DNA of 64,000 nt from Octopus vulgaris. Lineage: Eukaryota. A program made the translations under genes and the position numbers. Positions 61,606-64,000 of the stretch are shown here, one piece after another. Below the pieces are notes generated by a model, which was given only the letters and a program-made list of their open reading frames with translations, had not been told where the DNA came from and searched no databases. Every line of letters starts with the position of its first letter. Position 1 is the stretch's first letter. The stretch is taken from contig OX597831.1 of the NCBI GenBank assembly GCA_951406725.2, positions 12,214,001-12,278,000 on the forward strand. Reading direction: 5' to 3'.

Positions 61606-62462
61606 GTGATAGCTGATCAAAGGAAGTTGTGGAGTGTTTCATGAAAAACAGCACCAGCCAGGCTGCAATTCCTTCAGAACACTGTGTAAGACGTGCTTCC
61701 ATCCACAGCTGTTATTCAACAATTAGATTAGAGTTGTAAATCTGATTGTATTCTACATGACCAGCTTCTACATGACTAGCTTCACAGATCCATTATTAAT
61801 TTGTGATTTCAAATTAAAAAGAAGCATCTATTTATTCTAAATTTTATATTATGTATTTGTGAACCAAAAGAATTCATGGTTATGTGTCTCTGATGGGCCG
61901 ATTGTGAGTTCACTTCATTTCCAAAGACAAAAATTACGGGGAAGGGTGTATTTAGCTTGAGTAAATTATACAATATATTTATTTAATGTACTAGTTCACA
62001 TATATATATATATATATATATATAGGCCTATAAAAGGTTTCCCCATAGTTTCCGTCCTTATAATTACACTCAAAATGCTTTGGTCAACTTGAGGCTAGGA
62101 TTAAAGTTATTTGTTCTATCATGCATACTTCTAAAGCACACAGGCAGGCTTGCATCATTAAGTGAAAATTATGTTTCTTTGATTTGTAAGATTTTAAAAC
62201 TTCAGAAACAAATTTATAAGAATTTGATGGCACTGAGACCAGATCAAGTGAGCAGGATTAGGGGCAAGTCAGAAAAACTGCTTAGTCGCATTCATATTTT
62301 CGGAGTTCAAATTTCACTGTAATTGACATTGCCTTTCACTTTTTTCAGGGTCAGTAAAATAGACACCATTTGAATACTGGGGTCAATGTAATTGACTATC
62401 ATTCTTCCTTAGCAGCATTTCATCTGGTTCCTTACTTTCTGGTTTCAAATCCCAACAAACTC

Positions 62463-62852
62463 AATATCTCTCATTGTGACATTTAAAAATAGTAATTTTC
62501 TAATTTATAGATCAGTGACTAGTTGTCACTTTGAAAACTATATATTTTGAACGGGAATTTGGCAGCGCCACCTCTAGCCGAACAATTATTCTGTGCTGAT
62601 GAAGAGAAATAACCTGGAAATCGTAATACACAGATATTGTTCTGAGCTGAGTGGGGGTGCTAGATTCCCTTGTTTGAAAATATAAGGACACAGATTGTGT
62701 CGTACAGCCAGCTGGAGACGATGTCTACTGGGGCTAAATTACAGCAACATTCATCCTAAACCAGGACTGCCATGTTATGTTGGCAATCTTTACTTCAAAG
62801 TATTGTTACTGAATATCTCTCATTGTGAAATCTAAAAATAGTAATTTTCTAA
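62463..62852 (+). mobile_element. Candidate retrozyme: ~349-nt HHR-containing non-coding unit with terminal redundancy, inserted into a SINE
   Basis: 41-nt direct repeat (62463-62503 vs 62812-62852, 2 mismatches). Probable TSD aaactcaat/aagctcaat (62457-62465, 62851-62859). The host SINE resumes on both sides. Internal HHR core on a long imperfect helix. Confidence 0.7.
62581..62641 (+). ncRNA. Type I hammerhead ribozyme motif (stem II degenerate)
   Basis: tctgtg-CTGATGA(62596-62602)-agagaaataacctg-GAAA(62617-62620)-tcgta-ATA-cacaga. Stem I tctgtg/cacaga is extended by aacaat/attgtt. Predicted cleavage after AUA at 62628. Confidence 0.7.
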
Positions 62853-64000
62853 GCTCAATTTTGTTTTCCATCTTTTAGGGGTGTATAAAATAATTACCAG
62901 TTGAGCACTAGGGTCAATGTAATGGACTTATCACCTGCCCACCACTGAAATTGCTGGCCCTGTGCCCAAATATGAAACAGTTACTGTCATCATCTACTCC
63001 TTCCTGATATTAGACAATGTTGTTGCAATACAAAATGTCTTCAACAGAAGAATGGGTGATAGAAAATTGCCATACATCATAATGATTTATTTGGTTTTGG
63101 TAAAGTGCAAATCATCTCAAAGTAGTAGTGAGAATAATCCAATTCCAATGACAAAAAAAAGTCTTTGTGTAAATAGAAGAAAGTAAAATGAAGTTGGAAG
63201 TAGACAGAGAACTTCTTAGGAGGAAGGATTTAATTTGTTAAATCAAATATTAAACGACACCAGAGATTTCTCTTTCTTAATGTCAAAATTAGTTTGAGAA
63301 AGAAATGGAAAAGGTCTGGCAGACTTTCAGGAGACAAACTTAATCTGTTGTTCATAACAGTGGAGTCTATTTTGTTGGAAATATTCAGTCTTTAGACCAA
63401 GGTAAAATAGTTCAATACGCTGCAACATTGCTGTTTCCTGCAGCATCAATCAAAGAATTATAGCTTCTCCTTCCCTAATTTTTCAGCAATCCTGGGAGTC
63501 CAGTAGAAAAATTCAAGGATGCTGTCCTTCTTCTAAGATGCCATTGTTGCTGCCACTACTACCAACATTGTCATCAAGGTTTTAACACCTGCATTTCGAT
63601 GCTTGCATAGATCAGATTACATTCAGTTGAGGCAGAATTTTCTATGACTGGATGCTCTTCCTGTTGCCAATCTTCCCTTGTTTCCCTCATCTGTCAAACA
63701 GTGAACAGTCTGCACATACTGTTGTAGGGCATTGCAAACAAATGACAAGGTTTCTATGAATGGAGACTTTTGTATGTTTTGAAATTATATTTCCAATCAT
63801 AAAAACCACTTTGAATATTATTTTAGCAAGTTCTTTGGTGCAATAAGCCATTTACCATTTCCATGGTGTCTCCCTCTCTTCTCTAGATGCCCTAAGCACA
63901 ATGCTTATTTTGATTAATGGTTAATCCAGCACTGAGAAACACACAACATCACAAATCCTTGTTGTGGCTGGTGCCAGTGACATGTGAAAGGGACCCACTT

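Follow-up and report, generated by a model that had tools for sequence, protein, structure and literature searches.

A decayed retrozyme copy in an octopus genome, likely inserted by a Penelope-like reverse transcriptase-endonuclease and probably from a circular RNA

Introduction

Near the end of the window (the whole 64,000-nt stretch of Octopus vulgaris contig OX597831.1 analysed here, positions 12,214,001 to 12,278,000 of the forward strand) a short non-coding insert interrupts a SINE-like repeat. The locus raises the question of what kind of element this is and by what machinery it entered the site. A sequence-only reading had proposed a cephalopod retrozyme, that is, ~1.1 monomers of a rod-folded, hammerhead-bearing unit. 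We followed this proposal through the 2.8-Gb assembly. The reading that we consider fairly probable as a whole is that of a decayed retrozyme copy, likely inserted by a Penelope-like reverse transcriptase (RT)-endonuclease and probably from a circular RNA.

Metazoan non-LTR retrozymes, including mussel units of ~350-390 bp expressed as circles, have been described together with a proposal of their mobilisation by Penelope elements (PMC7229834). Penelope mobilisation of animal retrozymes has thus been a hypothesis since 2020, based on co-occurrence and then, in 2026, on terminal-repeat similarity: vertebrate retrozymes were described as non-autonomous Penelope derivatives (Li 2026, 10.64898/2026.07.22.740005). 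The class is therefore already known, and the new part of this study is how the copies are inserted. The main text of PMC7229834 contains neither "inverted" nor "cephalopod", and the text of Li 2026 has no "tail" and no analysis of insertion ends. A genome paper on the giant squid merely counts 235 Rfam hammerheads. Our literature search found no description of cephalopod retrozymes or of retrozyme insertion ends, although supplements or subscription journals could hold one.

Results

The insertion in the window

The insert is a non-coding 390-base stretch with a single arm, whose 3' end lies at the second of two preferred end sites (site B, Table 1). The structural claims of the sequence-only reading were reproduced here: the 41-nt terminal repeat recurs with a spacing of 349 and 2 mismatches, and the flanking repeats AAACTCAAT (62457-65) and AAGCTCAAT (62851-59) are identical at 8 of 9 positions. 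Splitting of a SINE-like repeat was verified as well, since its halves rejoin in register (62458 to 62853) with 22 of 30 columns matching homologues, compared to at most 13 in 15 other registers. Given this joint, the target duplication has 7 nt of its own and 2 more that it has in common with the element end; at the 5' junction its left copy is similar to the element too. Another copy of the host repeat is located just upstream, at 62290-62400, and the window contains at least 11 copies.

Two further claims stood in part. The window copy indeed ran 1.1 rings, but this is not typical of the family, where only 13 of 150 arms reach one ring and the median arm is 184 nt. The terminal redundancy, ascribed to reverse transcription around a circle, agrees with a cDNA that started at site B and continued 41 nt past one ring; a tandem linear RNA fits it too. 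The window copy is thus a decayed, 5'-truncated representative of the rarer single-arm form, started at B.

Table 1. Features of the insertion and its flanks (positions in the window)
Feature	Position	Strand	Evidence or remark
Host SINE-like repeat, 5' half	62425..62458 (start approximate)	+	joins 62853 in register, 22/30 columns
Target-site duplication, left copy	62457..62465	+	7 nt certain, 9 with shared AA
Partial second ring pass, 41 nt (variable truncated 5' end)	62463..62503	+	2 mismatches to 62812-62852
Complete ring unit, 349 nt, 38% GC, no long ORF	62504..62852	+	
Long imperfect rod with hammerhead at tip (extended helix I)	62541..62684	+	fold; equivalent rod in family 2
Type I hammerhead motif	62590..62634	+	column counts, 20 exact intact natural copies, pair probabilities
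Hammerhead helix I	62590-95/62629-34	+	6 pairs, continuing into rod
Hammerhead core	62596-602 and 62617-20	+	CTGATGA from 62596, GAAA from 62617
Extra A; extra G	62603; 62616	+	flank helix II
Hammerhead helix II	62604-06/62613-15	+	family GGG/CCC
Hammerhead helix III, short, palindromic	62620-27	+	predicted cut after 62628
Four short hairpins between ribozyme and site A	62685..62786	+	kept in family 2; putative protein-recognition region
Site A, first preferred 3' end (putative reverse-transcription start)	62790..62804	+	56/143 ends (sample 1); internal in window copy
Optional ~55-nt "tail", sites A to B	62800..62852	+	
Site B, second preferred 3' end, used by window copy	62845..62853	+	68/143 ends in the 20-nt interval from 62845
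Target-site duplication, right copy	62851..62859	+	pairs with left copy
Host SINE-like repeat, 3' half	62853..62935 (end approximate)	+	107 matches in fetched loci and window

A multicopy ring repeat without a protein

The insert belongs to a large dispersed family (family 1). The best 40 of 3,244 candidates yielded 88 matches of ~90% identity, and one 27-mer of the family has 1,393 exact, dispersed matches in the assembly, compared to 0 for a control 27-mer, so the sequence is not single-copy. Its unit closes into a ring of ~352 nt (349 in the window, 350-353 in other copies) with 38% GC, in keeping with the 150-450 nt and low GC of non-LTR retrozyme units. Copies are ~91% alike pairwise and differ from the column majority by 3.5% outside CpG sites. 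Public sequencing runs of five organism labels contain 39-70% of the family 1 words.

Tandem multimers, expected for a retrozyme, are present but rare: head-to-tail arrays with a hammerhead in each unit occur at four loci (L002, L004, L005 and L010), together with further dimers, the longest having ~3 units. Among the first 100 of 145 exact matches listed for the ring junction, one represents a head-to-tail pair. The ring carries no ORF; the longest stop-free frames in a natural trimer have 47 and 73 codons, and an autonomous frame for RT and the GIY-YIG endonuclease is absent from the ring and joined to none of the arms. The evidence supports the insert as a copy of a protein-free, multicopy, hammerhead-bearing ring repeat of the non-LTR retrozyme type.

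Fold and hammerhead

The window stretch folds better than shuffled sequences as a line (z -3.84, 0 of 100 shuffles) and, as the sequence-only reading had anticipated, the 349-nt ring does so as a circle (z -4.4, 40 shuffles). Over the rings folded as circles, z ranges from -4.4 to -6.8, with 62-67% of bases paired. The reverse strand folds about equally well against shuffles (z -5.1), and so it is the hammerhead alone, not the z-score, that picks the strand. All helix strands of the sequence-only reading that were searched are in their proposed places, and its ctc/gag strands pair in the fold. The description of a rod-folded unit holds for one long rod, 62541-62684, but not for the rest of the unit, which forms 5-6 short hairpins.

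The proposed hammerhead core was found in its stated place, with the cleavage triplet ATA at 62626-28. The pattern CUGANGA...GAAA...NUH with an open helix I spans 62596-62628 in the window and is kept in 95-100% of copies at the family columns; such high conservation reflects a common source, not selection. The family letters give an intact core, as had been expected of a consensus, with stem II as GGG/CCC. Column counts in family 1 are G in 92 of 109 copies at 62605, C in 76 of 113 at 62615 and G in 85 of 113 at 62616. Stem II is indeed broken in the window copy, but the proposed gag/ctc register and its repair by a G>C change were wrong, because most family copies have G at 62616 as well. 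The window copy departs from the family letters at 62605, 62615, 62624 and 62625, and its helix II pairs with a probability of 0-0.08, compared to 0.98-0.99 for the GGG/CCC of an intact copy (L046). With four changes in helices II and III, its hammerhead is probably dead.

Helix III of the family has 2 pairs inside an 8-nt palindrome and does not form in monomer folding. Metazoan and Penelope hammerheads with dimeric cleavage typically have an extra nucleotide after position 9 and a palindromic helix III (PMC4209133), and the extra A after A9 in family 1 is shared with the Penelope ones. The extra G before GAAA is unusual; a canonical helix II would have G10.1-C11.1 adjoining the core. The Rfam check suggested in the sequence-only reading gave no hammerhead in the window at E<=10, nor in 14 loci, intact copies included, at the gathering score. 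We judge it likely, with good confidence, that the source element would encode a functional ribozyme.

Two fixed 3' ends and inverted pairs

The top matches examined first shared one fixed 3' end; 20 copies chosen on the ribozyme alone revealed two. Instead of the circularly permuted ends expected by the sequence-only reading, 3' ends are thus fixed at two sites ~55 nt apart (A and B), neither of which is the ribozyme cut site, and 5' ends vary. Two samples of insertions were collected: 87 loci on contig 1 found with a probe upstream of both ends (82 after removal of 5 duplicates), and 90 new loci found with another probe (72 after removal of 18 overlaps and same-junction repeats).

Most insertions are 5'-to-5' inverted pairs, and nearly all classifiable pairs have one arm ending at A and the other at B. 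In sample 1 (n=82), 64 insertions were inverted pairs, 15 single arms and 3 complex. The pairs comprised 47 A+B, 5 B+B, 1 A+A and 11 with an unclassed end (p 3e-9 versus free choice); at least one pair scored as B+B, at L133, was A+B on inspection. Sample 2 gave 57 inverted pairs: 35 A+B, no A+A, no B+B and 22 with an unclassed end. Pooled, A+B accounts for 82 of 88 classifiable pairs. The probes favour pairs over single arms, which overstates the share of inverted insertions but leaves the A+B ratio as it is.

Target duplications flank 42 of 64 pairs in sample 1 and only 18 of 313 shuffled flank pairs. In anchored A+B pairs they were found at 59 of 79, with lengths of 8-15 nt (30 of 59 at 12-13 nt) and 73% AT, and on both sides they share ~2 nt with the element end, a figure given without a chance control. 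Inversion junctions have 0-6 nt of microhomology, with at least 1 nt in 39 of 51 ungapped cases; 13 more are gapped. Beyond the arm ends, the only sequences that recur among 130 loci are widespread host repeats.

A DNA-level foldback or MITE-like element with terminal inverted repeats, or LINE twin priming, would likewise leave inverted arms flanked by target duplications, and a few junctions do recur at unrelated sites. We give these explanations very little probability: the two ends differ (A versus B), arms vary without restriction in length and in centre, duplications range over 8-15 nt, and a poly(A) or repeat tail is lacking. Moreover, the two arms span one and the same part of the ring, an outcome that LINE twin priming is not known to give.

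The recurrent junctions themselves may be hot spots or re-copied inverted parents. They are shared by L132, L133 and L134 (contig 1, within 450 kb), by L052/L223/L232, L224/L227, L267/L270 and L075/L077; in the pairs that were aligned, flanks differ and identity is only average. One of them (62581-83 with 62640-42) falls on complementary strands of the rod.

Coding Penelope-like elements and a younger sister family

A scan for GIY-YIG domains revealed coding Penelope-like families in the same genome, some with intact RT-endonuclease frames of 781 aa or longer; named matches to Penelope proteins were to octopus and bivalves. One of these families has two 3' ends ~41 nt apart, with one of each in all 9 readable inverted pairs (11 fetched). 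Another has an optional ~37-nt tail and a minimal hammerhead. Thus the insertion footprint of the ring repeat matches that of coding elements beside it, and Penelope-type mobilisation, as suggested in the sequence-only reading, is in our view highly probable.

In a second coding family (L298-L330), frames reach 811-869 aa, candidates number 16,294, identity is ~99% among top matches, and inverted ends are strictly one short and one long. The family with the ~37-nt tail and the minimal hammerhead is a young two-ORF family (L158-L161, L167) that has a 781-aa frame for RT and GIY-YIG, a (TA)n target and an upstream frame of 333-479 aa, which has no Pfam match in the one copy scanned.

The same anatomy could mean that the copies are truncated terminal repeats (pLTRs) of a coding Penelope-like element that escaped detection. 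Most arms are shorter than one ring, and retrozymes of Xenopus were linked to pLTRs (Li 2026, 10.64898/2026.07.22.740005). We nevertheless regard this as highly improbable, since arms extending upstream re-enter the ring (26 of 92 run past its start) and not an ORF, dimers and trimers exist with only the short frames given above, and Penelope coding pieces (searched with one query protein) lie near 3 of 137 loci and are joined to the 5' end of no arm. The copies are thus not fixed ends of a coding element.

A second ring family was found by chance during the search for coding partners. Family 2 (L156:1-290 and L174-L204, for example L202) has a ring of 362 nt, ~97% identity among top matches and 2,724 candidates. 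It is colinear with family 1 over 212 of 369 columns (57% alike; score 211 versus 66+-10 in 200 shuffles) and keeps the rod and the series of hairpins. In its hammerhead U3-A8 replaces C3-G8, two pairs of helix I show compensatory changes, the palindrome of helix III is different, and U takes the place of the extra G, pairing with the extra A. Residue numbers follow the standard hammerhead scheme. This is the covariation that the sequence-only reading had expected, although the comparison rests on two lineages only; compensatory changes in the core and helix I of families merely 57% alike argue for selection on the ribozyme.

Ends of family 2 follow the same rule: its A and B are 57 nt apart, and 11 of 15 inverted pairs, read by eye, are A+B, with no like pairs. 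Of its ends, 32 of 39 lie in (TA)n, as do those of all coding families with readable ends, and the coding family with the ~37-nt tail has the U3-A8 core and palindrome of family 2. The common (TA)n ends suggest that these coding elements are likely partners of family 2.

In family 1, by contrast, contact with (TA)n is rare, 3 of 79 at each end. No terminal repeat matching family 1, only short shared motifs, was found in 36 GIY-YIG loci (of 6,136 candidates, mostly unscored), and no partner emerged from 20 more loci of the second coding family or from the ends of 8 others. Our guess is that its partner may be an older, less specific relative. Two motifs taken from loose read ends led to 3 ordinary copies and 0 matches, respectively. 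A copy 4 kb from a coding element was considered as a sign of partnership and dismissed as coincidence.

Circular or linear template

Arms were compared with the predicted cut. Of 82 arms, 78 pass it, and the 4 that stop in 62626-62632 are within the 3-13% of neighbouring windows; the slight sign of 5' ends close to 62629 that sample 1 had given was gone in this targeted sample. As arms do not stop at 62629, their template had either escaped cleavage or been ligated again. Each round of linear copying would shorten a copy and never lengthen it, and the best 40 of 3,511 candidates, which were scored, include no long source array (assembly may have dropped or collapsed one); this favours a circle. 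From the sequences we consider a circular RNA template reasonably probable.

An alternative, in our estimate rather unlikely, is the same Penelope-driven insertion from linear read-through of short tandems, with a weak or vestigial hammerhead that has no role in a circle. It is in agreement with the dispensability of cleavage for Penelope insertion in vitro (Frangieh 2024, PMC11167929), with a few insertions of at least three arms, which re-copying of genomic copies would produce, and with the differences between some tandem passes. In favour of a circle, consecutive passes carry the same alleles in most cases (26 of 29 and 15 of 19). They differ at transversion sites in 7 of 48 comparisons (15 of 69 by an alignment method), compared to ~46% for unrelated copies. 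A pure monomer circle would, by our estimate, predict ~1-2%, and the observed differences count against it. The shortening of linear copies, the compensatory changes between the two ring families and the lack of shared sequence past arm ends in the 130 loci stand against the linear template.

RNA-seq was inspected in ~6% of two raw runs from a related organism (2,096 and 1,763 reads from standard cDNA libraries). Reads come from both strands, with genomic-like depth and 3' bias, and include inverted joints; they are read-through of dispersed copies. No pile-up of read starts or ends was observed at the cut site in either run, as the linear template would have it, and the library type cannot show circles. 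In these runs 187 and 115 reads continue past site A (place 1839 of L004) into one shared sequence, absent from the octopus genome, and probably represent one expressed insertion in the related species.

Opposite arms of a pair share variants above chance (5.0% versus 2.2+-0.5%) and agree at three diagnostic sites in 75-85% of cases (54-68% expected). This fits copying from one RNA, but also contemporaneous subfamilies or later conversion; a concordance of only 75-85% weakens the case for one RNA.

Discussion

The following scheme of insertion can be proposed. The family exists as a closed ring of sequence without an ORF, whose copies cross its start and form short tandems. A transcript with two hammerheads would cleave itself, probably by dimerising at the palindromic helix III, and be ligated into a circle. 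The 8-15-nt duplications suggest that a GIY-YIG endonuclease cuts the two strands of an AT-rich target at positions 12-13 nt from each other. The cut ends would then serve as primers, one at A and the second at B, which lies 55 nt 3' of A, frequently pairing over 1-4 nt. Each cDNA ends prematurely, at no constant position, and their 5'-to-5' joining via microhomology would leave the inverted pair seen at the junctions; in single copies, as in the window, only one arm would survive. The near-strict A+B rule suggests that both primers are on one RNA or on one protein dimer. Double priming on a single RNA has about an even chance of being correct. More tentatively, and with somewhat less confidence than that, a Penelope RT dimer may capture the retrozyme circle and prime both cut strands on one RNA at two fixed sites. 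If true, this would explain both the spread of animal retrozymes and the Penelope tail at one inverted end only.

Various aspects of this scheme have counterparts in coding Penelope-like elements, for which inverted copies and one-ended tails are known (PMC8557442, PMC3846280). Frangieh 2024 (PMC11167929) described in vitro how two internal start sites make the tail and how both strands are cut and extended. The ring repeat is similar to these elements (PMC3846280, PMC8557442, PMC11167929) in its 5' truncation, the 5'-to-5' inverted copy, the tail at one end, duplications of the 8-10-bp class, AT-rich targets and a hammerhead upstream of two internal start sites. It differs from them in having no ORF, in closing into a ring, in a tail of ~55 nt as opposed to 30-40, and in a near-canonical hammerhead with a long helix I, theirs being minimal. 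Moreover, ring junctions show a short overlap with the target, whereas the starts of Frangieh 2024 (PMC11167929) are not homologous to the cut DNA.

The metazoan non-LTR retrozymes described in PMC7229834 are likewise non-coding, of ~350 nt and GC below 45%, with a type I hammerhead and short helix III, a highly paired predicted circle, head-to-tail repeats, duplications longer than 4 bp and co-occurring Penelope-like elements. In contrast to them, family 1 consists mostly of dispersed inverted pairs shorter than a unit, with tandems of at most ~3 units and two fixed internal 3' ends; circle expression was demonstrated for those retrozymes, whereas family 1 is known from genomic sequence and read-through RNA-seq. 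Li 2026 (10.64898/2026.07.22.740005) concluded the same mobilising partner for vertebrate retrozymes, on the basis of co-occurrence and pLTR homology in 35 non-mollusc genomes; here the conclusion comes from the insertion footprint, without pLTR homology. That study saw no in vitro cleavage for 8 of the 9 retrozyme dimers predicted, which counts against the present reading.

An ORF-less hammerhead ring with the full Penelope insertion signature at more than 100 loci, beside coding elements with the same signature, is genomic support for the idea, proposed long ago, that Penelope-like elements mobilise retrozymes. The near-strict A/B pairing limits quantitatively how a so far unexplained step in Penelope transposition can work, and the small RNA, with ~170-225 nt from the ribozyme to the start sites, offers a minimal template for work in vitro. 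The best experimental candidate is the young family 2; together with the intact (TA)n-targeting elements it makes a ready-made pair for reconstituting capture of the circle by an RT dimer.

Finally, further motifs resembling a hammerhead, but not related to either ring family, were observed on the minus strand of L149/L159 (near 5230) and of L141/L170, where they sit in apparent further short repeats.
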